Origin: Acidobacteriota bacterium
GTDB lineage: Bacteria; Acidobacteriota; Thermoanaerobaculia; Multivoradales; JAGPDF01
Assembly: GCA_045862895.1 (NCBI GenBank)
Contig: BTUO01000002.1
Coordinates: forward strand, 113,141-177,140
Direction: 5' to 3'
Length of the DNA stretch: 64,000 nucleotides
Made by a program: the position numbers and the translations under genes. The notes below the pieces were generated by a model that saw only the letters and a list, made by a program, of their open reading frames with translations, did no database searches and had not been told where the DNA came from. Below, piece by piece: positions 1 through 36,505 of this stretch (positions are counted from its first letter, which is position 1; the number at the start of each line of letters is the position of its first letter).

Positions 1-1
1 C

Positions 2-211
2 GACAACGTCCAGATCAAGGCCGTCGAGGAGAACGCGAACACGATCTACGTCATCGTCCCGCACTCGGTCGCCGCCGGCGCCGAGCTGGCCGACGAGGAC
101 CTCGAGAAGGTGGCCGGTGGCGCGACCGTCAAGGGCGACGCCAACTGCAACGACAGCGACGGCGCGATGAACACCGTCGTCGAGATCAACGCCGAGTTCA
201 GCCTGATCTAA
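2..211 (+). CDS. NHLP-leader RiPP precursor peptide, copy 1 (5'-truncated by window edge)
   Basis: Frame from base 2 reads DNVQIKAVEENANTIYVIVPHSVAAGAELADEDLEKVAGG|ATVKGDANCNDSDGAMNTVVEINAEFSLI-TAA(209-211). Near-identical to the 274..612 ORF. Not in the ORF track because the start lies outside the window. Confidence 0.92.
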   Translation, partial: DNVQIKAVEENANTIYVIVPHSVAAGAELADEDLEKVAGGATVKGDANCNDSDGAMNTVVEINAEFSLI

Positions 212-610
212 GCAGCACCGCTCCGTCGACGGAACGCAGCAGCAAACAAACCAGAAACTGAGGAGAGACTCCGATGAAGATGACCCGTGGTGAGATGCAG
301 GACCTGCTCGAGAAGTTCGCTTCGTCCAACCCGCAGTACCGTTCGGCCCTGCTCAAGAACCCCAAGGCCGTGGTCGAGAAGCAGTTCAACATGACGGTTC
401 CGGACAACGTCCAGATCAAGGCCGTCGAAGAGAGCGCGTCGACGATCTACGTGATCGTCCCGCACTCGGTCGCCGCCGGCGCCGAGCTGGCCGACGAGGA
501 CCTCGAGAAGGTGGCCGGTGGCGCGACCGTCAAGGGCGACGCCAACTGCAACGACAGCGACGGCGCGATGAACACCGTCGTCGAGATCAACGCCGAGTTC
601 AGCCTGATCT
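53..610 (+). repeat. Direct repeat: 53-209 identical to 454-610 (157 bp, offset 401)
   Basis: Base-by-base comparison of the two precursor genes. Confidence 0.93.
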
Positions 611-612
611 GA
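274..612 (+). CDS. NHLP (nitrile hydratase-like leader) RiPP precursor peptide, copy 2
   Basis: GAGGAG RBS before ATG274. NHLP leader hallmarks (YRSALLKNPKAVVE, IKAVEE..TIYVIVP) and the double-Gly cleavage motif ELADEDLEKVAGG, followed by a 29-aa core with 1 Cys, 4 Ser/Thr and 1 Lys. Confidence 0.95.
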   Translation: MKMTRGEMQDLLEKFASSNPQYRSALLKNPKAVVEKQFNMTVPDNVQIKAVEESASTIYVIVPHSVAAGAELADEDLEKVAGGATVKGDANCNDSDGAMNTVVEINAEFSLI

Positions 613-627
613 GCCTCACGCTTCGAG

Positions 628-670
628 CCGGCGTCCCTTCCCGCCCGGGAGGGGACGCCGGTGCCTTTTT
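628..670 (+). terminator. Hairpin plus T-tract after the precursor genes (intrinsic terminator/attenuator)
   Basis: CCGGCGTCCCTTCCC-gccc-GGGAGGGGACGCCGG stem (one G-U pair) followed by tgccTTTTT. Confidence 0.75.
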
Positions 671-727
671 CGGGGGCGCGGCCTCCGGGACCTTGCGGTA
701 GTTTCTGCCGTCGCGACGCGCCGATCC

Positions 728-3700
728 GTGACCCCTCCGACTTCCTCCGCTTCCGCCCCGACCGACGACGTCGCGGCCCGCCTGTCGAGAATCGCGGCGC
801 GTGCCGAGACCCTCGCCGAGCGGCTGGAGCGCGCCCGCGCGACTTCCGGCCCCGCCGATGTGGACGTCACGGAGGCGCTCGCCGGCTGGCAGCGCGCCTT
901 CGCGCCCGGGGACCCGGCCGCGCTCGAGCGCCGACTCGGCTGGGACGGCCTCGACCCGTCCACTGCGGCCCGCGCGCTCGGCCCGCAGGGCGAGCTCGCG
1001 CCGGCCTCGCCGCTGCCGGAGTGGGCCGATCTCGCGCGCCGGATGGGGGTGGGATCCGACTTGCGCCAGGCTCCCGAGCTGCCGCTCGATCTCACCTCGG
1101 TGCCCTTCGTCGAGCTCTGGTCCCCGCTGGTCGGGATGGCCCTGGCGGCCTACGCCCAGGCCCGCGAGACGGCGATCCCGGCCGAATCCATGAAGGTGCT
1201 GGTGCGCGGCCTCGCGGAGGACATGGCGCGCGTCGCGGGCGTCGCCGCCTTCGAGCGGTTCCGGCGCCGGCGCGAGGCCGATCCCGCGCCCGGCGTCTAT
1301 CAGCGGTTCGTCGCCGACGAGCTCGCCTCGGGCCTGCTCGACTTCGCCGAGGAGTTCCCGGTGGCGATGCGGCAGTTGGTCCGACTCGCGTCGACCTGGT
1401 ACGACGCGCTCACCGAGCTGGTCGCCCGCGTCGAGCGCGACCGGCCGGCGCTCGCCGAACGATTCGCGGCCGGCGCCGAGCTCGGGCCGATCGCCGTCGT
1501 CGAGCGCGCCGATTCCGACCGCCACGCCGGCGGCCGCGTCGTCTTCCGCGTCGCTTTCGCCAGCGGGCTCGAGCTGGCCGCCAAGCCGCGCTCGCTGGCG
1601 GTCGAGGCGGCGTTCGCCGGACTCGTCGGCTGGCTCGCCGAAGCCGGGTTCCCCGACCCGCCGCCGGCGCCCGAAGTGCTCGATCGCGGCGACCACGGTT
1701 GGATGCGCTGGGAGCGCGCCGCTCCGCTCGCCGATCGCGGGGCGCTCGAGACCTGGTGGCGCCGGGCCGGGACCCTGATCGCTCTGGCCGAGCTGCTCGG
1801 CGCCGAAGATTTGCATGCCGAGAACATCGTGGCGGTCGCCGACGGCCCGCTGGTGGTCGACGCCGAGATGCTGCTCCAGCCCGACCGTGCCGGCGTCGCC
1901 GGACGCGAGCGCCGCGAGCGGTTCACCGGCGGCCTGCTGCGGCGCGCCGGGGAGGCGGGGCGGGTGGCGGCCTGGGCCGGGCTCCATCCGGTCGAGGAGC
2001 GGGTGGTCTCGGAGCGCGGCCGGGGGTGGAGCGGCCTCGGCACCGACGCGCTCGCGCCGGTCCCGGTGCCGGTCGTCGCGCGGCCGCTTGCCAACGTCCC
2101 GGCGCACGACGGGCGGCCGACCTCGCCGCAGGAGTTCGCCGTCGCCCTGGTCGCCGGCTACCGCTCGACCTGGCGGCGGCTGCTCGACGCACGCGACCGG
2201 CTCGTCGCCGCGGACGGCCCGCTCGACCGGTTCGTCGGCGCGCCGCTGCGCCTGCTGATGCGCGCGAGCCAGGAGTACGCCACCGTCCTCGACCTCGCCG
2301 CGACGCCGCGCCACCAGCGCGACGCGCTCGGCGCCTCCCTGTTGTTCGAGGCGATGGCGCGGCCGTTCGCGTCCGCGACGAAGGCGCCACGCGCCTGGCC
2401 GTTGATCGCCGCCGAGCGCGCGGCGCTCGAGGGGCTCGACGTGCCACGCTTCGAGATCGCCGCCGACGGGCTCGACGCGACCGCGGACGGGGTGCGCGCG
2501 GAGGGGGTCGTCCCCCGCTCGGCGCTCGCCGCGGCCCGCGCCCGCCTGGCGGAGCTGACCGAGGCGCAGATCGAGCGCCGGGTCGAGGCGGTGGTCGAGG
2601 CTCTGGCGCCCGATGCGGGCGTGCGCATCGAGCTCGAGCCGCCGGCCGGCGAGGGCGCCGTCGCGCGGGCGCTGGTGGTCGCCGACCGCATCGTCGCCTT
2701 CGATCTCGATCCGCGGCGCGCGCGCGCTGCCGGCGATCGTCCGCGTCGCCTCGAAGAACGTCTCCTCGATCTGGCGCTCTACGACGGGCGCCTCGGCCGC
2801 GCCTTCGTGCTGGCGAGCGCCGATCGCGTCGACGGCGGCTCGCGGCTGACCGCGGTCCTGCCCGCGCTGATCGAGGATCTCGACCGCTTCGCGACCGATT
2901 CCGAGCAGAGCGATCTGCCCGTCGGCGGTCTCACCGGACTCGGTTCGATCGTCTGGTCGCTGGTGGCGATCGCGCGCGCGAGCGGGCGCGGCGAGCTGCT
3001 CGACATGGCGCGAAGCTACGCCCGGCGCCTGACGGGCGAGCGTCTCGCCGCCGACGAGCGGCTGGACGTCGAAGGAGGCGCCGCCGGCGCCCTGCTCGCC
3101 CTGCTCGCGCTCGCCCAGGCGACCGGCGAAGCGAGCTGGCGCGAAGCGGCGACCTCGGCCGGAGAGCGGCTGCTCGCGACCCGGACGCCGCAGCCCGAAG
3201 GGGGCGCCGCCTGGGTCGGCAGCGGCGGGCGCGCGCTCGCCGGCTACGCCCACGGCGCGGCCGGTATCGCCCGCGCGCTCGCCGCCCTCGGCGCGGCCAC
3301 CGGCGACCCCCGCTTCGCCGCGGCGGTGGCCGACGCCCTCGATTTCGAGCGGGCGCTCTACGACCCGGCCCACGGCAACTGGCCGGTTCGGCGCGCCGGC
3401 GCGGTGAGCGGAGACGAACGGGTGATCTGGATGACTGCTTACTGCCACGGTGCCCCGGGCATCGCGATCGGCCGCACCCTGCTGCCGCCGTCGGCCCGCG
3501 ACGAGCAAGTGGGGGAGGAGCTCGCTTCGGCGGTCGCGGCGACGCTCGCCGCTGGCGAGGGGAGCCACGACCACCTCTGCTGCGGAGCGGCCGGTCGCGC
3601 CCTCGCGCTCGCCCGCGCGGCGCTCGACGCCGGCTCGCCCGAGCTCGGCGCCTTCGCGCGCGGATTCGCCGCGAGCCTGCTCGAGCGGCCGGCGCGGCTG

Positions 3701-4867: not shown

Positions 4868-4948
4868 CGGAGCCGATGCCCGAACGTAGCCTCGCATCCG
4901 TCCGATGAGTCCGAAAGGGTCGCCGGTGGGCGACCGGGAGGGAAATCC

Positions 4949-6961
4949 ATGAGGCTTCCGATGAAATCGGTGCGCGGGTTCGGAGCGTTCGCGCTCGCGA
5001 CCCTGCTGGCCACCGCGGCGGGTGCGCAGGACGCGGCCTACGAGCCGCCCACCTTCTCCTACGGCGAGGGGCGGATCGAGCTGATCGAGGCGGTCCGGCT
5101 GACTCTCGCCCACGACCCCAACCTGCTGCTCGACCGCGAGGACGTGGTCTTCCGGCGCGGCGTGCTGCAGGAGATCTCGGGCTCGTTCGACTGGACGCTC
5201 GACCTCGGAGTCTCGTACGACTACCGCGAGCAGCGGCTGCGCGACTCGACCATCGACCGCGAGCGCGAGAAGCGCAACGACCTGACCACCCAGCGCGACT
5301 TCGCCTGCGCCGAGGAGCAGCGCCAGCGCGAGAGCCTGGCCAACCTCCAGCGCTATGCCGGCGGTGACACCAGCGCGCCGATCCCGAACGACGTCCGCCA
5401 GCAGATCGATTTTCTCGACGCGCTGATCGCCGCCGAGGACAACGCCACCCAGCGGGCCCTGCTCCAGCAGGCGCGCGCCAACGTCCTCCAGCGCGCGGTC
5501 ACCCAGGCGACCGAGGCGATCGACGATCTCGCCTCGACCTGCACCGAGCTCGGCGACAGCATCGCGCGCCTCGATGCGCCGCCGGACGAGGAGGAGTTCG
5601 CGACCGGCAAGTTCAATCTCGGCCTGTCGAAGCTCTACCGCAGCGGTCTCTTCCTCGCGCCCTTCTTCACCGCCAGCTACGAGCACAACCAGTTCAAGGG
5701 CAAGAAGAACGGCTTCTTCGAGGATCGTCTCGACGAGAACGGCCAGCCGGTAGTCACCGAGTTCGGCACGCCGCTGCGCCGCTTCGTCGACTTCGGTGGC
5801 AAGAACATCGCCGATCTCTACCGGGCCGAGCTCGGCTTCGACGTCAACGTGCCGCTGCTGCGCGGCCGCGGCGTCGAGTCGACGGGTGCCTCGGAGAAGG
5901 CGGCGGAGATCGACGTCGCCGCCTCGGAGATGGCGCTGCGCCACGGCTCCTCGTTGTCGGTGCTGTCGACCGCGGCGGCCTATTGGCAGCTGCTCGCCGC
6001 CCAGGAACGGGTGGCGGTGCTCGAGCGCTCGGTGGAGTTGCAGAGCCGGCTGGTCGACCTGACCGGACAGCTGATCGAAGGCGGCGTGATTCCGCGGGTC
6101 GAGTCCGCGCGCGCCGCGGCGGGTCAGGCCAACGCCCGAGCCCAGGTCGACGGCGCCCGCCGCGATCTGGTGTCGGCGCGGCTGGCGCTGGCGCGGGCGA
6201 TGGGTGTCGACGTCCAGAGCGAGGCCAACGCGCCGCTGGCGCAGGGACCGTTCCCGGCGGCGCCCTCGCTCGAGGCGATCCGGGCGCTCGACCCGGCGGC
6301 GCTCGCCGCCAGCGCGCTCGACCTGCGCGCCGACCGGCTCGCCTCGCGCGAGCTGGTGCGCTCGGGCCTGGTGCTGGCGGAGGCCGCGCGGCGCAACCTG
6401 GCGTCGCGGCTCGACCTGGCGCTGTCGTTGTCGGCCGGAGCGCTCGGCGAGAACAGCTTCTCGAACGCGGTCGACCGCTGGACCGGCCCGAACGGCTCGT
6501 TCGCGCTGGCCTTCGAAAAGAGCATCGGCAACAACTCGCTCGAGGGGCGCCTCGCCCAGAACCAGTCGCTGGTGCGCCAGCGCGAGATCTCGGCGATCGA
6601 TCTCGAGCGCAACATCCGGATCGGCATCGTGTCCACCCTGCGCTCGCTCGAAGAGGCCGTGGCGCGCCTCGAGGCGGCCGAGACCGCGGCCGGACACTTC
6701 CAGGCCACGATCGACGCCGAGTTCGAGAAGCTCGGGCTGGGCGCGTCGACCCTGATCGACGCCATCGTCACCGAGCAGCAGAAGACCGGCGCCGACCTCA
6801 CCGTGCTCACCGCCCGCCAGCAGGTCGCCAATCTGCTCTCGCAGCTGCGCTTCGAGACCGGCACGCTGGTCGAATGGGGCGACGGCGGCGGCACGCTGCC
6901 GGCCGACGCCCTGATCTCGCTGCCGCCCGGCGCGGCGGGAACCGCCGGAGGGCTGCCGTGA
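4949..6961 (+). CDS. TolC-family outer membrane efflux protein (with large insertion)
   Basis: Signal peptide, TolC helical repeats (VPLLRGRG..AAAYWQLLAAQERV; EFEKLGLGASTLIDAI..LRFETGTL), located in an export operon. Confidence 0.85.
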   Translation: MRLPMKSVRGFGAFALATLLATAAGAQDAAYEPPTFSYGEGRIELIEAVRLTLAHDPNLLLDREDVVFRRGVLQEISGSFDWTLDLGVSYDYREQRLRDSTIDREREKRNDLTTQRDFACAEEQRQRESLANLQRYAGGDTSAPIPNDVRQQIDFLDALIAAEDNATQRALLQQARANVLQRAVTQATEAIDDLASTCTELGDSIARLDAPPDEEEFATGKFNLGLSKLYRSGLFLAPFFTASYEHNQFKGKKNGFFEDRLDENGQPVVTEFGTPLRRFVDFGGKNIADLYRAELGFDVNVPLLRGRGVESTGASEKAAEIDVAASEMALRHGSSLSVLSTAAAYWQLLAAQERVAVLERSVELQSRLVDLTGQLIEGGVIPRVESARAAAGQANARAQVDGARRDLVSARLALARAMGVDVQSEANAPLAQGPFPAAPSLEAIRALDPAALAASALDLRADRLASRELVRSGLVLAEAARRNLASRLDLALSLSAGALGENSFSNAVDRWTGPNGSFALAFEKSIGNNSLEGRLAQNQSLVRQREISAIDLERNIRIGIVSTLRSLEEAVARLEAAETAAGHFQATIDAEFEKLGLGASTLIDAIVTEQQKTGADLTVLTARQQVANLLSQLRFETGTLVEWGDGGGTLPADALISLPPGAAGTAGGLP

Positions 6962-8952
6962 AGCGAGTTCTCCGAACCGCGCGGCCGTTCGCGGCCGCGC
7001 TCCTGGTGGCGGTCGCGTCCGGGTCCGCCCGGCCGGCCGCCGCCGCGGCGCTCTCGGCCGACGACGCGGTGCGCCGCGCGCTCGCCGCGAGCCCGGTGAT
7101 CGCGCGGGCCGAGCAGGAGGTCGCGCTGCGCTCCGGCGCGGTGACCCAGGCGGAAGGCCTGTTCGACAACGCGCTGCTCTCGGATTTCCGGGTCGACTAC
7201 GGCGTCGAGGAGCTGTTCGGCTCCCGGCTCAAGGCCGAGCAGGACCGGCGGCTCCGGCTCGAGATTCCGCCGCCGATCCTCGACGACATCGCCGCCAAGC
7301 TGATCGACCGGCTGCCGACCGATGCCAGCTTCTTCCTGCCCAGCAGCTGTCTCCAGGCGACCAGCTTCATCGTCCTCGGCGACACCTCGACGGTGGTCTG
7401 CGTCAACGACGACGGCAACGTGCTCGGCATCCTCGACCCGTCGATCGCCCTCGACCCGTCGCTGTTCACCACGCTCGAGCTGGGCGAGGCCTTCGCGGGC
7501 CTGTCCGGATTCGACGAGCGCCTGCAGGTCTTCATCGACCTCATCCGCAACTCCGCCGCCGACCAGATGCGCCTGACCGCGCTCATCCTGCGCCGCACCG
7601 CCGACTCGCTGCGCTTCCAGCGCATCCGGATCGGCCAGGTGCCGGAGGACCGCGTCTCGATCCGCATGGACGCCGGCGTCGACTACCGAATCCCGATGCG
7701 CAGCGGCGCGGCCCTGATCTCGTCGCTGTCGCTCGGCAGCTCCGAGGAGAACTTCCGCGGCAAGCGGCTCGATCCGACCTGGGGCGACGCGCTGATCGCC
7801 AACCAGTTCCGAATGACCGCCGGCCTCGCTCTCGACCTGCCGCTCGGTCGCGGCGCCGGCCGCGTCTCCTTCGAAGCGCCGCTGGTGGCGGCGCGGCGCG
7901 GCCAGGTAGCGGCGGAGGCGCTCTACGAGCACACCGCCTCCGAGCGCGCGCTGGCGACGCTCGAGGCCTACTGGGACGTCGCCGCTGCGGCGCGCCGCCT
8001 CGACCTGCTCGAGCAGTCGCTCGTGATCCAGGACCGCCTGCTCGGCGCGAGCGGCGAGCTGGCCGAGGCCGGAGTGATCCCGCGCGTCGACCTCGAGCTC
8101 AACCGCGCGCGCCGGGCGTCGACCGAGTCCTCGGTCGCCGGCGCGCGGCAGGCGCTCACGGTGGCGCGCGCCGAGCTCGCCCGGGTGCTCGGCATCGAGG
8201 CGGCGGAGCTCGAGACGATCGAGACCGACGCCGACCTCGCCGGCTGGATCGGCGCCGATCCGCTCGGGACCGGCGACGTCGAAGCGCTCGTCTCCAGGGC
8301 CGTCGCGGAGCGCGACGATCTGCGCGCGGCCGGCGAGCGGCTCGCGGCGGATCGCGCTCTGGCGGCCGCCGCGGAGCACGACCTCAGGCCCCAGGTCGCG
8401 CTCCAGATCAACGCCTCGTACAACGCATTCCACGAGACCTTCCGCGAGCGCTTCTACGATCCCGAGGGGTTCGAGAAGGCGATGGACGAGCCGTGGTCGG
8501 GTCCGAGCTACGGCGCGGCGCTGCGCATCCGCTTGCCGATCGGCAACAACGCCGCGCGCGGCCGGCTGCTCCAGGCCCGCTCGGCGGCGACCTCGAGCGA
8601 GATCGGATCGATCGACCTCAGGCGTTCGATCCGTCTGTCGGTGATCGAGGCGGCCGAGGCGCTGCGACGCTCGCGCGCCGAGCTCGAGTCGCGGCGCGAG
8701 GCGCTGGCGCGCATCGAGGAGACGGCGGAGGCGACGGTCGAGCGGTTCCGCGCCGGCGACCTCACCGTCCTCGACACCCTGATCACCGAGTCGGACCTGA
8801 CCAACGCCCGGCTCGAGGTGCTCGCGGCCGAGCGTACCTACCTGTCGCTCGCCGCCCGACTTCGCTTCGCCACCGGCACCCTGCTCGATCTGCCGGCGGC
8901 GGGCGACGTCCGGGGCGCGCGACTGGCGCCGTTCGCGCAGCCGATTCTCTGA
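6958..8952 (+). CDS. Second TolC-family outer membrane protein (with large insertion)
   Basis: GTG6958 overlaps the upstream TGA, GGAGG RBS. Signal peptide VKRVLRTARPFAAALLVAVA, then LPLGRG..AYWDV and RFRAGDLTVLDTL..LRFATGTL. Confidence 0.85.
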   Translation: MKRVLRTARPFAAALLVAVASGSARPAAAAALSADDAVRRALAASPVIARAEQEVALRSGAVTQAEGLFDNALLSDFRVDYGVEELFGSRLKAEQDRRLRLEIPPPILDDIAAKLIDRLPTDASFFLPSSCLQATSFIVLGDTSTVVCVNDDGNVLGILDPSIALDPSLFTTLELGEAFAGLSGFDERLQVFIDLIRNSAADQMRLTALILRRTADSLRFQRIRIGQVPEDRVSIRMDAGVDYRIPMRSGAALISSLSLGSSEENFRGKRLDPTWGDALIANQFRMTAGLALDLPLGRGAGRVSFEAPLVAARRGQVAAEALYEHTASERALATLEAYWDVAAAARRLDLLEQSLVIQDRLLGASGELAEAGVIPRVDLELNRARRASTESSVAGARQALTVARAELARVLGIEAAELETIETDADLAGWIGADPLGTGDVEALVSRAVAERDDLRAAGERLAADRALAAAAEHDLRPQVALQINASYNAFHETFRERFYDPEGFEKAMDEPWSGPSYGAALRIRLPIGNNAARGRLLQARSAATSSEIGSIDLRRSIRLSVIEAAEALRRSRAELESRREALARIEETAEATVERFRAGDLTVLDTLITESDLTNARLEVLAAERTYLSLAARLRFATGTLLDLPAAGDVRGARLAPFAQPIL

Positions 8953-8980
8953 GTCATCCGAGCCGGGGAAGGAAGCCGCC

Positions 8981-10126
8981 ATGCAGGGACCGGACAAGCT
9001 GCTGCGCAAGGCCTCGGTCGAGAAGCTCTCCTCGCCCGAGCAGCTCGACATGATGATGAGGGTCACCTCGCCGATGGGATGGGTGGCGGTGGTGGCGATC
9101 GGAGCGATGATCGTGGTGGCGATCGTCTGGAGCGTCACCTTCCCGATGCCGGTCAAGGTCGACGGCCGCGGCTTCATGGTGCGCGGCGAGGCGGTGCGCG
9201 AGGTGCAGATCCTGACCTCGGCGACCATCCAGTCGGTCGAGGTCAAGACCGGGGACGTGATCGAGGCGGGCGCGGTCGTCGCCCGCCTCGCGATGCCCGA
9301 CGTCGAGGCGCGTCTGGCCTCGTCGAAGGCGCTGCTCGCCGAGCTCGAGCAGCAGACCTCGGACTCGGGCTCGCAGACCGCGTCGATCCAGGGCCGCCTG
9401 CGCGCCCAGATCGCGCGGCTCGAGCAGGACCGCCGGCAGAAGCAGCAGCTGGTCGACCGCGGGCTGCTGACCTCGGCGGCGGTGGCGTCGATCGATCAGC
9501 AGATCACCAGCCTGCAGAACTCGATGGCGCAGAGCATGATCGGCACCGGCGACCGCGGGCTCCGGGTCGAGGACAAACGGCTCGAAGTGCGGGAGCTCGA
9601 GGCCAAGCTCGCCAACGAGTCGGTGGTGCGCAGCTCGTTCGGCGGCCGGGTGGTCGCGGTCCGGGCGGGAGTCGGGCAACCGGTACGCCCCGGCGACGCG
9701 CTGCTGTCGCTCGAGTCGATCGGCGATCCGATGCGCGTCATCGGCTTCGTGCCGCTCGCCGCCGGCAAGAAGGTCTCGGCCGGACTCGAAGTCCGCATCG
9801 CGCCTTCGTTCATCCGGGTCGAGGACTACGGCTTCATGATCGGCAAGGTGGTGTCGGTCTCCGCCCTGCCGGCCACGCCTGAGGAGATCCAGCGCATCGT
9901 CGCCAACGACTCGCTGGCCCGGCAGTACATCGATCTCAACCCGTTCCAGGTGGTGATCGAGCCGACCGCGGCGGAGACGCCGTCGGGCTTCAAGTGGACT
10001 TCGTCCTCCGGCCCGCCGGTCGAGGTCGGCAGCGGCACCGACTGCACGGTGCAGGTCGTGGTCGAGACCAGGAAGCCGATCTCGTACGTGATCCCGACCG
10101 TCAAGCAGACGCTGGGCCTGTCCTGA
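8981..10126 (+). CDS. NHLP bacteriocin-system secretion protein (HlyD-type membrane fusion protein)
   Basis: LRKASVEKLSSPEQLD N-terminus, one TM helix, coiled coil, and the FKWTSSSGP C-terminal motif typical of NHLP HlyD proteins. Confidence 0.92.
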   Translation: MQGPDKLLRKASVEKLSSPEQLDMMMRVTSPMGWVAVVAIGAMIVVAIVWSVTFPMPVKVDGRGFMVRGEAVREVQILTSATIQSVEVKTGDVIEAGAVVARLAMPDVEARLASSKALLAELEQQTSDSGSQTASIQGRLRAQIARLEQDRRQKQQLVDRGLLTSAAVASIDQQITSLQNSMAQSMIGTGDRGLRVEDKRLEVRELEAKLANESVVRSSFGGRVVAVRAGVGQPVRPGDALLSLESIGDPMRVIGFVPLAAGKKVSAGLEVRIAPSFIRVEDYGFMIGKVVSVSALPATPEEIQRIVANDSLARQYIDLNPFQVVIEPTAAETPSGFKWTSSSGPPVEVGSGTDCTVQVVVETRKPISYVIPTVKQTLGLS

Positions 10127-10129
10127 CCG

Positions 10130-12346
10130 ATGGCCGAGGCGGAGAAGAAGCCGGCCGCCGCCGGCGCCAAGGCGAAACCCAAGCCGAAAGCGAAGCGGCA
10201 GCGTGTCCCCACCGTCCTCCAGATGGAGGCGGTGGAGTGCGGCGCCGCGTCGCTCTGCATGATCCTCGCCTACCACGGCCGGATCGCCCCGCTCGAGGAG
10301 TGCCGCGCCGAGTGCGGCGTCTCGCGCGACGGCTCCAAGGCCAACAACGTCCTCAAGGCCGCGCGCAAGTACGGGCTCGACGCCAAGGGGTTCAAGTACG
10401 AGCTCGAGGACCTCTACAACCTCGAGTACCCGGCGGTGCTGTTCTGGAACGCCAACCACTTCCTGGTGCTCGAGGGGTTCAAGGGGGACAAGGCCTGCCT
10501 CAACGACCCGGCGCAGGGCCCGCGCCAGGTCACGATCGACGAGCTCGACTCGTCGTTCTCGGGCGTCGTCCTGACCTTCAAGAAGGGGCCCGATTTCAAG
10601 CCGGGTGGCGAGAAGCCGAGCCTGGCCGGCGCGCTGCGCCGCCGGCTGCGCGGCTCCGAGACCGCGCTCGCGTTCGTCCTGCTCTGCGGTCTGTTCCTGG
10701 TCGTCCCCGGGCTGGTGATCCCGACTTTCTCGCGCGTCTTCGTCGACGAGTTCCTGGTCGCCAACCGGGCGTCGATCGTCAAGCCGCTGCTGCTCGGCAT
10801 GGGTCTGACGCTCGGACTCCAGGCGGTTCTGACCTGGCTCCAGCGTTATTACCTCCTGCGTCTCGAGACGAAACTGGCGCTCTCCAACTCCGCGGCCTTC
10901 TTCAATCACATCCTGCGATTGCCGGTCGGCTACTTCGCGCAGCGCTTCGCTGGCGAGATCGGTTCGCGGGTGGCGATCAACGACAAGGTCGCCGGTATCG
11001 TCTCGGGCAAGCTCGCGACCACGGCGATCGACTGCTTCCTGGTCATCTTCTACGCCATCCTGATGTTCCGCTACGACGTCGGCCTGACTCTCACCGTCAT
11101 CGGCGTCGCGCTCGCCAACGTGGTCGCGATCCGGGTGGTCGGCCGGGTGCGCACCGACGCCAGCAGGAAGCTGCTGACCGACAAGGGCAAGCTCGGCGGC
11201 ACCGCGATGGGCGGCTTGCGCATGATGGAGACGCTCAAGGCCACCGGCGGCGAGAACGAGTTCTTCTCGCGCTGGGCGGGCTACCAGGCCAAGGCGCTCC
11301 GGGCCGAGCAGCAGCTGCGCCAGATCAGCGACATGGTCTCGGTGGTGCCGACCGTGGTCAACACGCTGGTGACCGCGTCGGTGCTCTTCTTCGGCGGCCT
11401 GAAGGTCATGGACGGCACGCTCACCGTCGGTCTGCTGGTCGCCTATCAGGCGCTGACCGGCAGCTTCGTCAAGCCGCTCAACTCCTTCGTCACCTTCGGC
11501 TCGACGCTGCAGGAGCTCGAGGCGGACCTCAACCGACTCGACGACGTGCTGCGCTACCCGCAGGATCCGCTCTACAGGAACGAGGCGGCGCAGCGGGCCG
11601 AGAACCCCAACGATCAGCGCTTGAAACTCCAGGGCAAGATCGAGCTGCGCGACGTCACCTTCGGCTACAGCCCGCTCGAGAAACCGCTGATCGAGGATTT
11701 CAACCTCACCATCCAGCCGGGCCAGCGCGTGGCGCTGGTCGGCGGCTCGGGCTCGGGCAAGTCGACCGTCGCCAAGCTGGTCTCGGGTCTCTACCGCCCC
11801 TGGGCGGGCGACGTCCTGTTCGACGACACGCCGCGCGACCGGGTGCCGCGGCGCCTGCTGGCGAACTCGCTCGGCCTGGTCGACCAGGAGATCTTCCTGT
11901 TCGGCGGCACCATCCGCGAGAACGTGACGATGTGGGACGCGACCGTTCCCGCCGGCCGGGTCACCGAGGCCTGCCGCGACGCCGCGATCGCCGAGGTGAT
12001 CGAGACCCGCGACGGCGGCTACGGCGCGATCGTCGACGAGGGCGGCGGTAACTTCTCCGGCGGACAGAAGCAGCGCCTCGAGATCGCCCGCGCCATGGTC
12101 GGCAATCCGACCATCCTGATCCTCGACGAGGCGACGTCGGCGCTCGATCCCTCGACCGAGTCGATCGTCGACGACAGCCTGCGCCGGCGCGGCTGCACCT
12201 GCATCATCATCGCCCACCGGCTGTCGACGATCCGCGACTGCGACGAGATCATCGTCATGCAGCGCGGCAAGATCGTCCAGCGCGGCACCCACGACGAGAT
12301 GAAGGACGCCGAAGGCGCGTATGCAGAGCTCATCAAGACCCACTGA
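10130..12346 (+). CDS. NHLP export ABC transporter, C39 peptidase/permease/ATPase
   Basis: LQMEAVECGAASL (C39 catalytic Cys), NHFLV, TMD, Walker A GGSGSGKS, FSGGQKQR, LDEATSALD. Confidence 0.95.
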   Translation: MAEAEKKPAAAGAKAKPKPKAKRQRVPTVLQMEAVECGAASLCMILAYHGRIAPLEECRAECGVSRDGSKANNVLKAARKYGLDAKGFKYELEDLYNLEYPAVLFWNANHFLVLEGFKGDKACLNDPAQGPRQVTIDELDSSFSGVVLTFKKGPDFKPGGEKPSLAGALRRRLRGSETALAFVLLCGLFLVVPGLVIPTFSRVFVDEFLVANRASIVKPLLLGMGLTLGLQAVLTWLQRYYLLRLETKLALSNSAAFFNHILRLPVGYFAQRFAGEIGSRVAINDKVAGIVSGKLATTAIDCFLVIFYAILMFRYDVGLTLTVIGVALANVVAIRVVGRVRTDASRKLLTDKGKLGGTAMGGLRMMETLKATGGENEFFSRWAGYQAKALRAEQQLRQISDMVSVVPTVVNTLVTASVLFFGGLKVMDGTLTVGLLVAYQALTGSFVKPLNSFVTFGSTLQELEADLNRLDDVLRYPQDPLYRNEAAQRAENPNDQRLKLQGKIELRDVTFGYSPLEKPLIEDFNLTIQPGQRVALVGGSGSGKSTVAKLVSGLYRPWAGDVLFDDTPRDRVPRRLLANSLGLVDQEIFLFGGTIRENVTMWDATVPAGRVTEACRDAAIAEVIETRDGGYGAIVDEGGGNFSGGQKQRLEIARAMVGNPTILILDEATSALDPSTESIVDDSLRRRGCTCIIIAHRLSTIRDCDEIIVMQRGKIVQRGTHDEMKDAEGAYAELIKTH

Positions 12347-12350
12347 CGCC

Positions 12351-15300
12351 GTGGCGACCGTCAAGCTGCGGGTGGTCGAGTCGCCGGTGCCGGGGCTCGC
12401 CGGGCAGGAGCTCACGCTCGACGCCGCCGGCGGCGAGCTCGTCATCGGCCGCGCCGACGACTGCGGCCTGCCGGTCGCCGATCCGTCGATGTCGCGCCGG
12501 CACGCCCGCGTCCTGGTCGTGAACGGGGGCGCCCGCGTGGTCGACAACGGCAGCGCCAACGGCGTCCACGTGGACGGCGCGCGGGTGCCCGAGGCCGAAC
12601 TCGCGGGCGGGCGGCGGTTCACGCTCGGTCAGACCGTGTTCGAGGTCGTCGTCGAGCTGCCGCCGCCTCCGCCCGAGCCGGTCGCGCCGCCGGCGCCGGA
12701 GCCGGATCGGCACGCCCACATCCCGGTCGACCGCACCATCTCGATCTCCGACATCGCCGCGATCGTGCGCGAAATCGAGCGCCCGAAGAGCTTCGAGGAC
12801 GAGGGCGAGGCGGTGGTCACGGCGGCCAACAAGCCGTTCGTGCTCTCCGATCCCGACGCCGTCTACCTGGTCGAGTCGGGCAAGATCGAGATCTTCACGG
12901 TAGCGCTCGAGAACGGCCAGCCGGTCGGCGCGCGCACCCACTTCGTCAGCATCGACCCGGGGCAGCTCTTCTTCGGCATGGATACCGACCGCTACGGCAT
13001 GGGCTCGGGGTTCCTCGCCGTCGGCAAGGCGGGCTCCGAGCTGCGCCGCTATTCGGCCGCGCGGCTGCTGCGCCTGGCCGGCGAGAAGGCCCATCGCGAG
13101 AGGGTCGCCGCGATGGTCGTGCGCTGGGTCGAGGCGCTGTCGCGCCGCCTGGTCTCCGACCTCGAGGTACCGCGGCCCGAGGTCGCGCTCGAAACCGGCA
13201 AGACCTTCGAGGCGGCCGCGGGCAAGCGCGTGGCGAGCGAGCGCGGCGTCGCCTGGGTCGAGATGCCGGCCGCGCAGTTCCTGTTCGACGGCATGTCGAG
13301 CGCGTCGTGGGAGGTCGAGGGCGTTCTGCTGCCGATGGCCCCGGGCAGCTGGATCGAGCTGATCGGTGGCGCCGAGACGTTCACGGGAACGCCGCGCGGC
13401 GCCGCCGAAGTGATCGACGATCCGCGCGCGTGGGCCGGTCTCGAGGTGTTCCACCGCTTGCTGTGCGAGGGCGAGTTCCTCAACAAGCGGCTGTCGACGG
13501 TCGACGAGTACAACCGCCTGCAGAGCAAGGCCGCGCAGACCGAGCAGGCGCGCGAGGCGGCGATGGGCGCCATCGGCTCGGTGCTCGGCGGCACCGGGGT
13601 CTGGGAGCGGCCGTCGTTCGCCGGCGGCGACCTCGGGCCGATCGTCGGCGCGATGCGCCTGATCGGGCAGCGGCTCGGCGTCGAGATCAAGTCGCACCCC
13701 GAGGGCAAGGAAAAGCGCACGTTCGACGAGACGCTGCTCTCGGTCTCTCTGGCGTCCCGACTGCGCTCGCGCCGGGTCGCCCTGGTCGACGACTGGTGGA
13801 ACTACGACCAGGGTCCGATGCTCGGCCAGTACGAGGAGTCCAAGGCGCCGGTGGCGCTGCTGCCGACCGGACCGACCAGCTACGACGCGGTCGACCCGAC
13901 GACCGGCGACCGCCGCAAAGTCGACGAGCAGCTCGGGCGCAGTCTGGTGCCGTTCGCCACCACCTTCTACGTCGGATTCGGCGACGGGCCGGTGACCGCC
14001 AAGCAGTTGATCCGCTTCGCGCTGCGCGGCCTGAAGTCCGACTTCCGCACCGTCGCGCTCATGGGCATCGGGCTCGGCCTGCTCGGGACCGTGCCGCCGA
14101 TGATCACCGGCAAGGTCTTCGATACCGCCATCCCGCAGGCCGAACGGGCGATGCTGATCCAGTTCGCGGGCGGCCTCTTCTTGATGGCGCTGGCCCAGGC
14201 GGCGTTCAAGATCACCCAGGCGATCGCCATGGTCCGCGTCCAGGGGCGGATGGACTACTCGGCGCAGTCGGCGGTCTGGGATCGCCTGCTCGACCTGCCG
14301 ATGACCTTCTTCCGCGGATTCTCGGCCGGCGACCTCGCCGACCGCGCCTCCGGCGTCGACCAGATCCGCCAGATCGTCGCCGGCGCCGGCATCGCCGCGA
14401 TCCTCGGGTCGTTCTCGTCGATCTTCAACGTCTTCCAGATGGTCGGGTACAACATCACCCTGGCGGCGGTGGCGATCGGCCTGACGCTGTTCTACGTCGG
14501 CGTGACCACCTCGGCGAACTACCTGCAGCTGCGCTTCCAGCGCGACGAGCAGAAGCGACGCGGCCGCATCACCGGCCTGGTGCTGCAGTTGATCTCGGGC
14601 GTCGCCAAGCTGCGCGTCAGCGGCGCCGAGAACCACGCCTTCCGGGTCTGGGCGACGGCCTTCTCCGAGCAGCGCAAGGTCAGCTTCAAGGTCGGCCGAG
14701 TGCGCAACGTCATGCAGGTTTTCAACGCCGGCTTCCCGGTCGCCTCCTCGATGGTGATCTTCGCCACGATGGTTTCGCTCAAGTCGTCGTCGGCGGAGAA
14801 GGGGACGCCGTTCGAGATGACGACCGGCGAGTTTCTGGCCTTCTCCGCCGCTTACGGCCTGTTCCTCGCCGCGATGCAGGCGCTGGGCGACGCCTCGCTG
14901 TCGATGCTCAAGATCGTCCCGGTCTGGGAGCGGTTGAAGCCGATCCTCGAGGCCACTCCGGAAGTCGACGCCAGCAAGGTCTACCCGGGCCGCTTGAACG
15001 GCGCGATCGACATTTCGCACCTCTCCTTCCGCTACACCTCCGACGGGCCCTGGATCCTCAAGGACGTCTCGCTCAAGATCCAGCCCGGGGAGTTCGTGGC
15101 GCTGGTCGGCGGATCCGGCTCGGGCAAGTCGACGTTGATGCGACTGATGCTCGGTTTCGAGACGCCGGAGATGGGCTCGATCTACTACGACGGCCAGGAT
15201 CTGGCGACCCTCGACCTGCGCCTGGTCCGCTCCCAGATGGGCGTGGTGCTGCAGGAGAGCCGCCTGCTGCCGGCCGACATCTATCGCAACATCGTCGGTT

Positions 15301-15716
15301 CCTCCTCGCGCACCGTCCAGGAGGCGTGGGAGGCGGCCGAGAAGGCCGGCATCGCCGAGGACGTCCGCGCCATGCCGATGCAGATGCACACCGTGGTCGC
15401 CGAGGGCGGCGGCAGCTTCTCGGGTGGGCAGAAGCAGCGCCTGATGATCGCCCGCGCCATCGTCCACAAGCCGAAGATCCTCTTCCTCGACGAGGCGACC
15501 TCCGCGCTCGACAACAAGACCCAGGCGATCGTCACCGAGAGCATGAACAAGCTCTCGGCGACGCGCATCGTGATCGCCCACCGGCTGTCGACCATCGTCA
15601 ACGCCGACCGCATCTGCTACCTCGAGAAGGGCGAGCTCAAGGAGCAGGGGACGTTCAAGGAGCTGATGGAGCTCGACGGCCTGTTCGCGGCGCTCGCCAA
15701 GCGCCAGCTCGCCTGA
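12351..15716 (+). CDS. NHLP export ABC transporter permease/ATPase with N-terminal FHA and cNMP-binding-like domains
   Basis: FHA motifs IGR..SRRHA..SANG, Pro-rich linker, VYLVESGKIEIF cNMP-like segment, TMD, GGSGSGKS, FSGGQKQR, LDEATS. Start is GTG12351 or ATG12321. Confidence 0.9.
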   Translation: MATVKLRVVESPVPGLAGQELTLDAAGGELVIGRADDCGLPVADPSMSRRHARVLVVNGGARVVDNGSANGVHVDGARVPEAELAGGRRFTLGQTVFEVVVELPPPPPEPVAPPAPEPDRHAHIPVDRTISISDIAAIVREIERPKSFEDEGEAVVTAANKPFVLSDPDAVYLVESGKIEIFTVALENGQPVGARTHFVSIDPGQLFFGMDTDRYGMGSGFLAVGKAGSELRRYSAARLLRLAGEKAHRERVAAMVVRWVEALSRRLVSDLEVPRPEVALETGKTFEAAAGKRVASERGVAWVEMPAAQFLFDGMSSASWEVEGVLLPMAPGSWIELIGGAETFTGTPRGAAEVIDDPRAWAGLEVFHRLLCEGEFLNKRLSTVDEYNRLQSKAAQTEQAREAAMGAIGSVLGGTGVWERPSFAGGDLGPIVGAMRLIGQRLGVEIKSHPEGKEKRTFDETLLSVSLASRLRSRRVALVDDWWNYDQGPMLGQYEESKAPVALLPTGPTSYDAVDPTTGDRRKVDEQLGRSLVPFATTFYVGFGDGPVTAKQLIRFALRGLKSDFRTVALMGIGLGLLGTVPPMITGKVFDTAIPQAERAMLIQFAGGLFLMALAQAAFKITQAIAMVRVQGRMDYSAQSAVWDRLLDLPMTFFRGFSAGDLADRASGVDQIRQIVAGAGIAAILGSFSSIFNVFQMVGYNITLAAVAIGLTLFYVGVTTSANYLQLRFQRDEQKRRGRITGLVLQLISGVAKLRVSGAENHAFRVWATAFSEQRKVSFKVGRVRNVMQVFNAGFPVASSMVIFATMVSLKSSSAEKGTPFEMTTGEFLAFSAAYGLFLAAMQALGDASLSMLKIVPVWERLKPILEATPEVDASKVYPGRLNGAIDISHLSFRYTSDGPWILKDVSLKIQPGEFVALVGGSGSGKSTLMRLMLGFETPEMGSIYYDGQDLATLDLRLVRSQMGVVLQESRLLPADIYRNIVGSSSRTVQEAWEAAEKAGIAEDVRAMPMQMHTVVAEGGGSFSGGQKQRLMIARAIVHKPKILFLDEATSALDNKTQAIVTESMNKLSATRIVIAHRLSTIVNADRICYLEKGELKEQGTFKELMELDGLFAALAKRQLA

Positions 15717-15741
15717 GTCACGGTTTCGCGGTCTCCCGGAC

Positions 15742-16851
15742 GTGACAGCGACCCTGCCCGTCGAACGCCGTCACGCGCTGCTCACCGAGCTCGGTGCGCC
15801 GGCCGCCGCCCGCGACGAGCTGCTCGACTACCTGGACGATCACTACCAGGGACTCGCCGGCGATGCTCCGGACGCCGCGGCGGAGGAGCCGCAGGTGCGT
15901 TTCTGGCGCACCTACGTCGAGGAGGCGGGGCGCGACGGGGTCGCGCGGGCGCTGCGTCGCCGCTTTCCGCAGCTCGGCTTTCCGGTCGCCTCCGGAGTCT
16001 CGCAGTCTCCGGAGTACCGTGCCGCGACCCGTCGCGGCGAGTTCGATCGCGAGGGGCCGGTGGCGCTCGGGTTCGAGCGGCCCGACCGGCTCGAGCTCGT
16101 GCTCGATACCGGCATCGCGGGGCCGGTCCCGGTGCTGACCGCGCGCCACCGCCCGGACTTCGTCGCGCTGGTGCGCGCTCTCTCCGCCCGCAACGAGCCC
16201 GAAGTCGTACCGGACGCGATGGGCGCCTGCCTGGTCAAGGGGCTCGCCGACTGGGAGCGGGTCGATGACTACCGCCGCGCCTGGGAGCGCCGCCTCGGCC
16301 GCACCCCGGGCGACGAGGAATGGTCGGCCGAGATGGCCGCCGGCCTCGCGCCGAACAAGGAGCTCTGGCAGGACCGGCTCATCCTGCTCTCCGACGGGCC
16401 CTACTCGGCCGTGCCGGCGGCGGAGATCGGGCTCGCGGAAGAGGAGTGGCGCGAACGCTCGCTGGCGATCCGCCTCGCGCACGAGAGCTTTCACTACCTG
16501 ACCCTGCGCCGGGCCGGCGCGATCCGCAGCCACCTGCTCGACGAGCTGGTCGCCGACTACGCCGGGCTGACCTTCGCGTTCGGGCGCTACGAGCCCCGGC
16601 TCGCGCTGCGCTTCCTCGGCCTCGATCGCCTCCCCGAGATCCGTCCGGACGGGCGGCTCGCGGTCTATCGTGGCGCCCTCTCGGACGACTCGGTGGCGGT
16701 GCTCGCCCGGTTGCTCGCGCGGGCGGCGGCCGCGCTCGCCGCTCTGCCGCCGGTGGACTCCGCTCCGCAGCGGCGGGCGACGCGCCTGCTCCGGCTGGCC
16801 GCCGCCGGGCTCGACGGCATCGCGGACGGGGCGGTCGGGGTCGCGGAGTGA
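15742..16851 (+). CDS. HExxH-motif protein of unknown function (DUF7005-like)
   Basis: LILLSDGPYS and IRLAHESFHYLTLR..LLDELVADYAG motifs. Co-oriented with the export operon. Confidence 0.7.
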   Translation: MTATLPVERRHALLTELGAPAAARDELLDYLDDHYQGLAGDAPDAAAEEPQVRFWRTYVEEAGRDGVARALRRRFPQLGFPVASGVSQSPEYRAATRRGEFDREGPVALGFERPDRLELVLDTGIAGPVPVLTARHRPDFVALVRALSARNEPEVVPDAMGACLVKGLADWERVDDYRRAWERRLGRTPGDEEWSAEMAAGLAPNKELWQDRLILLSDGPYSAVPAAEIGLAEEEWRERSLAIRLAHESFHYLTLRRAGAIRSHLLDELVADYAGLTFAFGRYEPRLALRFLGLDRLPEIRPDGRLAVYRGALSDDSVAVLARLLARAAAALAALPPVDSAPQRRATRLLRLAAAGLDGIADGAVGVAE

Positions 16852-17264
16852 CGGCGGCGAGGTTCCGCCGCCGGCTCGAGCCGCCGACGATCGAGGGCGT
16901 CGCCGAGGCCGCGGTCGAGCTCGACGCCTGGTGCCGACGAAGCGGGGTCGACGAGCAGCGCCGGCGCGACCTGTTGCTGATCCACGACGAGCTCGCTTCG
17001 AACGTGGCGCGCCACGCCGGCGGCGCGACCTTCGTCGCGATCCGCGCGCGCCTCGAGCACGAGGCGGCGCGGCTGGTCTACGGGGTCGAGGACGACGGCG
17101 ACCGTTTCGATCCGCTGGCACGGCGATCGCCGGAGACCGGCGCGCCGCTCGAGGAGCGGGTCCCCGGTGGCCTGGGCATCCACCTCGTGCGCACGCTCGC
17201 CGCCCGCGTCGCGTGGCGGCGGGCGCGGGGGCGAAACCGGCTCGAGGTAGAGCTCGCGCTCTGA
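16848..17264 (+). CDS. Anti-sigma-factor-type ATP-binding protein (RsbW-like HATPase)
   Basis: GTG overlaps the previous TGA. N-box DELASNVARH, G1 EDDGDRFDP, G2 GGLGIHLV, GRNRL. Confidence 0.85.
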   Translation: MTAARFRRRLEPPTIEGVAEAAVELDAWCRRSGVDEQRRRDLLLIHDELASNVARHAGGATFVAIRARLEHEAARLVYGVEDDGDRFDPLARRSPETGAPLEERVPGGLGIHLVRTLAARVAWRRARGRNRLEVELAL

Positions 17265-35790: not shown

Positions 35791-35856
35791 CGCTGGGGGC
35801 CCTCCAGGAGATTGCGCCGTGCGACGCGCGACGGCGCGTGGAAGGATATCAACGCG

Positions 35857-36429: not shown

Positions 36430-36505
36430 TCGCGGTCGCCAACCGCTACAATCCCATCGGATTCTCCGAAGCAACGACCGCAGCGCCGCCACCGAGGCCG
36501 AGGCC

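Follow-up and report, generated by a model that had tools for sequence, protein, structure and literature searches.

The locus described here raises the question of what a bacterium of the phylum Acidobacteriota makes from a run of genes for NHLP-type peptide precursors, a lanthipeptide synthetase fused to a GNAT domain (LanM-GNAT) and a dedicated export machine, and how this production is controlled. The run occupies positions 1-17264 of the window, by which we mean the whole 64,000-nucleotide stretch that was analysed (positions 113141-177140 of contig 2, BTUO01000002.1, in assembly GCA_045862895.1, termed G000). The 15 kb to its left were also fetched, and coordinates left of the window refer to an 18-kb locus stretch, L007. 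With a probability of roughly 0.7, we consider the locus to be an intact cluster of about 27 kb for making, exporting and regulating a ribosomal lipopeptide of the selidamide type, probably in a member of the Thermoanaerobaculia. The cluster begins about 8.7 kb left of window base 1 and its right edge is at position 18474. Since the window has a G + C content of 72%, open reading frames alone mean little; the G + C content of the third codon positions (0.90-0.95) singles out one co-oriented gene run on the forward strand as coding. A preliminary description of the window had listed NHLP precursors, LanM-GNAT, two TolC-like proteins, HlyD, an ABC transporter with a C39 domain, an ABC transporter with an FHA domain, an HExxH protein and an anti-sigma ATPase, and all of these genes were indeed found in place, on the forward strand and tightly coupled. 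Its count of at least two precursors holds for the window; there are three in all, the first of which lies wholly to the left of base 1. The expectation of more genes on that side was confirmed by the upstream contig, which shows the further precursor and conserved cluster genes over about 8.7 kb, and the supposed non-cyanobacterial, probably acidobacterial host agrees with the finding that the nearest named relatives are Thermoanaerobaculia.

The nature of the product can be approached from its precursors. The three tandem NHLP genes, which are exactly the three TIGR03793 matches in the genome, share one identical 29-residue core. The leader of precursor C ends with VAGG (residues 80-83) and is followed by the core ATVKGDANCNDSDGAMNTVVEINAEFSLI. 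For comparison, a scan of species-representative genomes with a GNAT alignment gave 58 loci from about 58 species-level genomes, mostly metagenome-assembled genomes of Acidobacteriota, some Rhodanobacteraceae/Lysobacter, some Myxococcota and one genome labelled Cyanobacteria; the loci were annotated by phmmer with the proteins of the window. The related loci yielded 60 precursors with 51 distinct cores, one of which (L027|5618) was cut at an internal Gly-Gly by the parsing pattern and is still counted. A lysine is present among the first five residues of 50 of the 51 distinct cores, exactly one cysteine in 48, and a serine or threonine stands 7-9 residues downstream of the cysteine in 41. In an alignment of 25 sequences, the Gly-Gly motif is invariant, and the sole conserved core positions are the cysteine (invariant) and one threonine (at least 90%), which correspond to Cys9 and Thr18 (Thr101 of the precursor) in the window. 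Moreover, five genuine cores (L021, L023, L026, L047 and L056) have no serine or threonine ahead of the cysteine and, therefore, the ring partner must be located after it. Because the core pattern fits the plan of the published selidamides, acylation of Lys4 and a ring between Cys9 and Thr18 are predicted; the product would be an Nε-acyl-Lys4, Cys9-Thr18 methyllanthionine lipopeptide with a selidamide scaffold. The pattern of the family, which consists of a lysine near the N-terminus, one cysteine, a partner threonine 7-9 residues further on and a hydrophobic tail, may serve as a testable minimal scaffold. The predicted ring also holds the residues DSDG (core residues 11-14), which match D-x-D-G, the motif of calcium-dependent lipopeptide antibiotics. 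D-x-D-G is confined to 8 of the 51 distinct cores, all from the clade of the window and one Myxococcota locus (L050), and is thus not a feature of the family.

The enzyme that would modify this core consists of a dehydratase (about nucleotides 1355-2458), a LanC-like cyclase with a CCG motif (about 2765-3778) and an NpuN-like tandem GNAT (3896-4864). The LanM part aligns with NpuM (E 3e-106), with which it has the motifs D-x-H-x-E-N, VD-x-E, HG, CHG and DHLCCG in common. We take DHLCCG to mark ProcM-like LanM enzymes, and D-x-H-x-E-N, CHG and CCG presumably have catalytic and zinc-ligand roles. Thus, the LanM part is a class II lanthipeptide synthetase of the ProcM-like (CCG) kind. It would dehydrate Thr18 and add Cys9 to it, thereby closing a single 10-residue methyllanthionine ring with the cysteine on the N-terminal side, as in phaeornamide. 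For the GNAT tail, the best match among 72,556 plasmid records is NpuN (WP_012412981.1) from the npu cluster on plasmid pNPUN01 of Nostoc punctiforme, and the BLASTP alignment extends from residue 24 to 315 of 323 in the tail and from residue 18 to 295 of 295 in NpuN, with 33% identity and an E-value of 1e-55. The RGMGIG P-loop of the window enzyme aligns with RCAGIG of NpuN, a predicted tandem GNAT whose N-terminal half carries the P-loop (PMC8784127; accessible text of PMC13060382). Upon co-expression in E. coli, NpuN puts C16 acyl chains on Lys1 of its core (PMC8784127). The GNAT part of the window enzyme could likewise move an acyl chain from acyl-CoA onto the side-chain amine of Lys4. The last 323 residues also match at least 381 stand-alone proteins of about 310-340 residues, whose named hosts belong to Thermoanaerobaculia, Vicinamibacteria and Myxococcota. 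The preliminary description had recognised in LanM plus GNAT the logic of the cyanobacterial selidamides; the homology to NpuN and the lysine, single cysteine and threonine of the core speak for the logic, and the word cyanobacterial was too narrow, as phaeornamide is of alphaproteobacterial origin and the GNAT clade has acidobacterial members.

The export genes are equally well defined. HlyD, ABC1 and ABC2 together form the known partner trio of NHLP precursors (Haft et al. 2010; PMC2887384). In the window, all three score above the equivalog cut-offs of TIGR03794, TIGR03796 and TIGR03797, and the exporter genes are colinear in 26 loci. ABC1 has the motifs QMEAVECG and NHF, which we take to contain the catalytic cysteine and histidine of the C39 peptidase. 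This domain would cut after the Gly-Gly motif that ends at residue 83 and free the product, which the ABC1/ABC2-HlyD-TolC machine could then carry, as an acidic lipopeptide, over both membranes. In ABC2, an FHA domain occupies residues 41-103 (nucleotides 12441-12629), and an N-terminal region reads by eye as cNMP-like. The FHA domain is present on ABC2 in 20 of the 28 related loci in which the N-terminus was in reach. In the Vicinamibacterales-like loci L019 and L057, the FHA part of the window protein matches twice in tandem at the N-terminus of ABC2, which suggests that these proteins carry two FHA domains. The tandem TolC-like proteins (4949-8952) have about 665 residues each; TolC-family matches begin at about residues 260-320, and each protein has a long N-terminal extension without family assignment.

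How might the production of the peptide be controlled? A sigma-54 site, TGGCACGCCCGCTGC (TGGCAC-N5-CTGC), lies at L007 14335-14349, 118-132 nucleotides ahead of precursor A, and no other site in the 18-kb stretch comes within one mismatch of the sigma-54 consensus. Among the 35 loci whose upstream sequence was long enough (two loci were left out), 25 have such a site within 200 nucleotides of the first precursor; the background amounts to 52 sites in 1.29 Mb of strand sequence, that is 0.04 per kb per strand. The adjacent gene encodes an activator (Sigma54_activat, 195.8 bits) and the genome has one rpoN gene, while a scan of the precursor region for sigma-70 promoters gave 0 sites. The site, the activator and rpoN together point to a putative sigma-54 promoter in front of the precursors. 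Downstream of the third precursor, a hairpin with a fold energy of -46.2 kcal/mol was found as RNA (z-score -4.6; 0 of 200 shuffles equally stable). The number of terminator-like sites in the precursor region (1) is not above that of shuffled sequences (mean 1.7); the case for the hairpin rests on its own fold energy. The hairpin may be an attenuator that keeps the precursor transcripts in excess.

Between the activator and the precursors, a gene for a HAD fusion protein is kept as one frame in 26 loci. The HAD half has a DxYGT motif; the HAD residues are invariant and so is the pattern K...NAD-x-RPRN...D-x-E in the C-terminal domain. The nearest Atlas models of this domain are HipA-like, Kdo/WaaP, APH and RIO kinases, with template-modelling (TM) scores of 0.5-0.67, which is a lead and not a proof. 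A Foldseek search with the model of the whole protein gave only HAD-domain matches among the 50 matches listed and is uninformative on the C-terminal domain; similarly, only the HAD half matched in a profile search of the PDB. FHA domains read phosphothreonine. The HAD-kinase-like protein may act as the kinase that is otherwise missing for the cluster's FHA domains, or it could be a kinase or phosphatase of small molecules. The PP2C, STAS and HATPase_c_2 components score above the Pfam cut-offs, the RsbA subfamily model reaches 47.8 bits against a cut-off of 210, and no sigma factor gene was seen in the neighbourhood stretch that was read. Taken together, these genes make a phospho-dependent control plausible; its parts would be four proteins with FHA domains, the PP2C phosphatase, STAS, the RsbW-like kinase and a further candidate kinase. 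Production would then be conditional, and the control layer, comprising the activator, the co-transcribed HAD-kinase-like protein, PP2C-GAF-FHA, cNMP-FHA, STAS, the RsbW-like kinase with DUF7005 and ABC2 through its FHA domain, might act on transcription, on export or on the two together. The phospho-regulated export of the preliminary description is deduced from domain content.

The HExxH protein is a member of the family DUF7005. Its residues H247, E248 and H251 are invariant in 34 sequences, and so are E268 and D272. The AlphaFold2 model of the protein is of high quality (predicted local distance difference test (pLDDT) 93.3; predicted TM score (pTM) 0.92), and a Foldseek search against the PDB gave 0 matches at E ≤ 0.001, the best TM-score being 0.15. 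As a candidate zinc metallopeptidase, the protein has the HExxH motif, and this search recognised no metalloprotease fold in it. DUF7005, for which no description was found in the literature, is thus apparently an uncharacterised family with a new fold. Among the 120 homologues listed, 19 are fused to a HATPase_c_2 kinase. Five related genomes have a single DUF7005 gene each, which in four of them stands immediately behind ABC2 and in the fifth at a distance of about 2 kb. Moreover, of 401 genomes sampled from the phylum, 13 contain DUF7005, and all 7 GNAT-bearing genomes are among these; in three genomes without the GNAT it still lies beside TolC, HlyD, ABC1 and ABC2. Because of this linkage, also in genomes lacking the GNAT, DUF7005 is better assigned to the exporter/regulator module than to the tailoring of the lipolanthipeptide. 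A predicted complex of DUF7005 with the precursor reached an interaction prediction score from aligned errors (ipSAE) of 0.39, as against 0.01 for the best of 3 controls, which is weak support; the runs agree in at least 65% of the contacts and the pLDDT of the partner is at least 62. The mark that this pair passes is also passed by 58 out of 80 solved complexes, as against 2 out of 110 mismatched pairs; at values of 0.60 or under, just 7 of the 80 solved complexes pass it, together with both of those mismatches. It is conceivable, but doubtful, that DUF7005 binds the NHLP precursor or the cleaved leader in the cytoplasm and reports the precursor load to the RsbW-like kinase, thereby forming, with the HAD-kinase-like protein, PP2C-FHA and the FHA domain of ABC2, a checkpoint that couples sigma-54-dependent transcription to export. 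Gene linkage and the one weak complex prediction speak for this proposal. If true, it would be a production-control circuit of a kind that has not been described for RiPPs, the peptides that are ribosomally synthesised and then modified post-translationally.

The regulatory setting also bears on the purpose of the peptide. It is possible, if on balance unlikely, that the product is not primarily an antibiotic and acts instead as a conditional surface-active or signalling molecule, which would explain why it is embedded among sigma-54, partner-switching and FHA functions. Indeed, the regulator set is conserved alongside the biosynthetic genes over many loci, the sigma-54 promoter is conserved too, and no immunity gene is recognisable in the cluster. 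Kamptornamide and phaeornamide, furthermore, behaved as poorly soluble amphiphiles, and foam extraction was among the purification methods tried. However, unacylated nostolysamide C is membrane-depolarising and antifungal (accessible text of PMC13060382), and the patchy spread of the family, which was found in 7 of the 401 sampled genomes of the phylum with the window's own included, suits an accessory weapon equally well.

Besides this patchiness, several points weigh against the reading of the locus as a regulated selidamide cluster. The identity of the GNAT to NpuN is just 33%, and its probable place in the selidamide GNAT clade is deduced from the comparison with NpuN. In vitro, NpuN takes acyl groups from C2 to C16, and the bioactivity of nostolysamide was unchanged by acylation (accessible text of PMC13060382); for this reason, one should presume neither that the chain is long nor what it is for. 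In 10 of the 51 cores, the nearest downstream serine or threonine is outside the +7 to +9 range. The core of the window has four such residues (T2, S12, T18 and S27) and, therefore, other dehydrations or a ring between Cys9 and Ser12 are possible; in fact, that the peptide is acylated, how long the acyl chain is, how often the core is dehydrated and how the ring closes are all inferred. As regards the control layer, no sigma-54 site was found in 10 of the 35 loci, the STAS phospho-site reads by eye as serine, and the FHA domains, as readers of phosphothreonine, have in the HAD fusion just a candidate kinase, the kinase-like fold of which is suggested by motifs and Atlas neighbours only.

If the GNAT does not lipidate at all, it might transfer a short acyl or acetyl group, act on an N-terminal amine or serve in self-protection, and the product would be a plain or acetylated lanthipeptide with a single ring. 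In favour of this explanation, Pfam sees only generic acetyltransferase families in the domain, a sequence search of the PDB with the tail gave generic acetyltransferases only (E 0.008 at best), NpuN also uses acetyl-CoA in vitro, and the cluster is devoid of a gene for acyl activation or an acyl carrier. The latter is also true for the characterised selidamide GNATs, which draw their acyl chains from primary metabolism without dedicated genes. Given the full-length homology to an enzyme that adds C16 chains in E. coli and the lysine near the N-terminus of nearly all cores, we regard a GNAT without lipidating function as rather unlikely and keep to the acylated product.

The fusion of the two enzymes can be followed over the related loci. 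Fused LanM-GNAT proteins form at least 11 protein clusters, as compared to at least 381 stand-alone GNATs. LanM and GNAT are fused in 7 of the 58 loci and split in 43, while the other 8 have no LanM in reach; in 33 of the 43 split loci the LanM and GNAT genes overlap or stand within about 20 nucleotides. When 55 GNAT domains are placed on a tree with NpuN as the root, 5 changes are required to explain the fused state, at least 4 of which are forced by well-supported branches. It seems, thus, that the fusion arose repeatedly from two translationally coupled partners, which fits both enzymes working on the same leader-bound substrate. That the fusion is an assembly or frameshift artefact, and that the cell makes two proteins as most relatives do, is highly improbable: the domains are encoded separately, mostly in overlapping or abutting genes, in 43 of the 50 loci holding both, a 90%-identical stand-alone call of 321 residues (P0002) lies on a 1.4-kb contig and an in-frame ATG (MTES...) stands where stand-alone GNATs begin, but no stop codon separates the two parts in the window, four independent fused clusters (P0122-P0125; 1371-1379 residues, 78-91% identity) match it in length, the loci L008 and L009 are fused as well, and the linker region of P0003 aligns with that of the window. 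In six loci from Rhodanobacteraceae, Lysobacter and Pseudomonadota (L033, L036, L039, L042, L043 and L045), LanM and GNAT are 0.7-1.1 kb apart, which leaves space for an extra gene; L033 apart, the stretches fetched for these loci yielded no exporter genes.

The layout of the cluster is given in Table 1. Adjacent genes are separated by between a 26-nucleotide overlap and 81 nucleotides, and the sole wider gap (115 nucleotides) lies between the last precursor and LanM. Upstream of the precursors, the order is a PP2C (SpoIIE) protein with FHA and GAF domains, a GT22-like membrane protein, STAS, cNMP-FHA, the sigma-54 activator and the HAD fusion. In L010, L012, L015 and L017, STAS directly follows PP2C without a GT22 gene and, thus, the latter looks like an insertion in the window's cluster. 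The genes right of 18474, for a Big_5 protein and a PKD/cytochrome-c protein, look unrelated. The remainder of the window (18500-64000), which was listed by open reading frames and third-position G + C content, contains a 1518-residue frame at 35282-39835, and the PKD and cytochrome-c/peroxidase-like protein is encoded at 20054-22375.

Table 1 Features of the cluster and its flanks (window coordinates unless marked L007 or G000)
Feature	Position	Strand	Remarks
GT22 (Alg9-like) membrane glycosyltransferase	L007 8378-9862	+	between PP2C and STAS genes
HAD hydrolase with C-terminal domain of ~300 residues, 502 aa	L007 12674-14182 = G000:C2 110814-112322	+	start overlaps stop of sigma-54 activator
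NHLP precursor A	L007 14467-14805	+	wholly left of window
NHLP precursor B, C-terminal 69 residues	1..211 (coding 2-211)	+	full gene L007 14873-15211; core same as precursor C
NHLP precursor C, 112 aa	274..612	+	TIGR03793 63.1 bits, cut-off 50.9
Terminator-like/attenuator hairpin (putative), 16 pairs, then T-run	627..662	+	between last precursor and LanM-GNAT
Fused LanM-GNAT, 1379 aa	728..4867	+	DUF4135 (PF13575) 264 bits; LANC_like (PF05147) 127.4; Acetyltransf_1 47; TIGR03897 480.9 (cut-off 304)
TolC-like outer-membrane protein 1, 670 aa	4949..6961	+	OEP 74.7 bits; TIGR01844 match from residue 316
TolC-like outer-membrane protein 2	6958..8952	+	OEP 101.4 bits; GTG start overlaps TolC1 stop by 4 nt
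HlyD-type membrane-fusion protein, NHLP export	8981..10126	+	TIGR03794 263.3 bits, cut-off 156.2
ABC1: C39 peptidase, permease, ATPase	10130..12346	+	TIGR03796 1084.8 bits, cut-off 853.3; Peptidase_C39 113 bits
ABC2: FHA, permease, ATPase	12321..15716	+	TIGR03797 892.6 bits (cut-off 709.4), residues 440-1130; FHA 48.5 bits
DUF7005 protein with HESFH	15742..16851	+	PF22541 345.5 bits
RsbW/SpoIIAB-like HATPase_c_2 kinase	16848..17264	+	PF13581 66.6 bits; GTG start overlaps DUF7005 stop by 4 nt
397-aa protein with C-terminal FHA, convergent on operon end	17281..18474	-	FHA 69.3 bits, residues 327-388

Regarding its occurrence, the family was found in none of the genomes listed from the same family or the same order. 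The DNA of the window is nearly identical in bioreactor and sludge metagenomes of several studies. Moreover, parts of the precursor and of LanM recur in nearly identical form in contigs from four RNA libraries, which is a weak hint, as such contigs can show neither transcription nor its level or strand and DNA may contaminate such libraries.

How new is the cluster? Selidamides are established, and Hubrich et al. (2022; PMC8784127), who also screened for LanM and precursor genes next to the GNAT genes, included Acidobacteria in GNAT subclade b, so that the kind of chemistry is already known. The cluster can no longer be called a candidate new system, as it had been; about 58 species-level genomes carry the same family. 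Its unusual features appear to be mainly the fused tailoring enzymes and the elaborate control system that surrounds them. No description of a fused LanM-GNAT or of this core scaffold was found in the literature, and the supplements of PMC8784127 (Table S7, Figs S64-S66) and PMC13060382 (Figs S14-S15) may list this acidobacterial subfamily or fused forms; in the accessible text of PMC13060382, the word fusion refers to SUMO tags only. Likewise, no description was found of sigma-54 control of lanthipeptide or NHLP clusters, of an ABC2 protein bearing an FHA domain or of the conserved HAD-kinase-like gene, and the literature on lanthipeptides of Thermoanaerobaculia deals with a different LanM-oxidoreductase cluster and yielded no description of the present one. 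The gain is, thus, a well-defined new subfamily with its control logic and not a new class. There is a demand for ribosomal lipopeptides, which could be engineered to replace non-ribosomal lipopeptide drugs, and a single natural polypeptide for both ring closure and lipid attachment would be a compact engineering tool. Furthermore, the conserved sigma-54 promoter and the adjoining activator may allow an otherwise silent acidobacterial cluster to be switched on, and DUF7005 represents an apparently new fold that accompanies NHLP exporters in general.

Among the known systems, the nostolysamide (npu) cluster is the closest. Like the window, it encodes a class II LanM with DHLCCG and a tandem GNAT that acylates a lysine side chain at the N-terminus of the core, and it has a protein-like leader ending with Gly-Gly and HlyD, ABC1 and ABC2 directly downstream. 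Since npu has LanM, GNAT and then HlyD, ABC1 and ABC2, the biosynthetic and export core of the window matches a characterised cluster, and the architecture is not, as had been thought, unlike that of any such cluster. There are, however, clear differences. The npu precursor is of the Nif11 type and that of the window of the NHLP type; the npu core is a 25-mer with four cysteines and evidence for up to four rings, whereas the window core has one cysteine; and the npu enzymes are separate, whereas those of the window are fused. In contrast to the window, npu lacks TolC genes and DUF7005 in the 7 kb that follow ABC2. The annotation of the npu stretch that was read shows a single regulator, a response-regulator gene upstream, and none of the sigma-54, FHA and partner-switch genes known from the window.

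The kamptornamide (ksp) and phaeornamide (pha) clusters share with the window an NHLP precursor, LanM and GNAT. Their products contain one methyllanthionine ring, and a fatty acyl group is carried by the side-chain amine of core residue 1 or 2; one such ring and an acylated side chain are also predicted for the window. Kamptornamide contains one methyllanthionine ring and acyl-Orn1, and phaeornamide, from an alphaproteobacterial source, a Cys4-Thr7 methyllanthionine ring and acyl-hydroxy-Orn2 (PMC8784127). Both clusters acylate an ornithine made by a peptide arginase, whereas the window cluster is without an arginase gene and its predicted acceptor is Lys4. Moreover, the ksp and pha cores are unrelated to the window core and neither cluster has fused enzymes.

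The exporter is that of the NHLP/Nif11 export system, in the description of which the term FHA is absent from the text (Haft et al. 2010; PMC2887384). The window differs from this system by the N-terminal FHA domain of ABC2 and by the attached genes for two TolC-like proteins and DUF7005. As for the control genes, the partner-switching modules RsbU/RsbV/RsbW and SpoIIE/SpoIIAA/SpoIIAB combine a PP2C phosphatase with STAS and HATPase_c_2 proteins. The window likewise has a SpoIIE-type PP2C, STAS and a HATPase_c_2 kinase; unlike in the modules, the kinase is translationally coupled to DUF7005, to which it is fused in relatives, and the phosphatase carries FHA and GAF domains. Finally, the predicted peptide resembles the calcium-dependent lipopeptides of the daptomycin type, which are acidic, are lipidated near the N-terminus and contain a 10-residue ring with D-x-D-G as a motif. 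Unlike these non-ribosomal lipopeptides, the window peptide is ribosomal and its predicted ring is closed by a thioether instead of an ester. As a side reading of the checkpoint proposal, the DSDG ring might make the product a ribosomal counterpart of the calcium-dependent lipopeptides.

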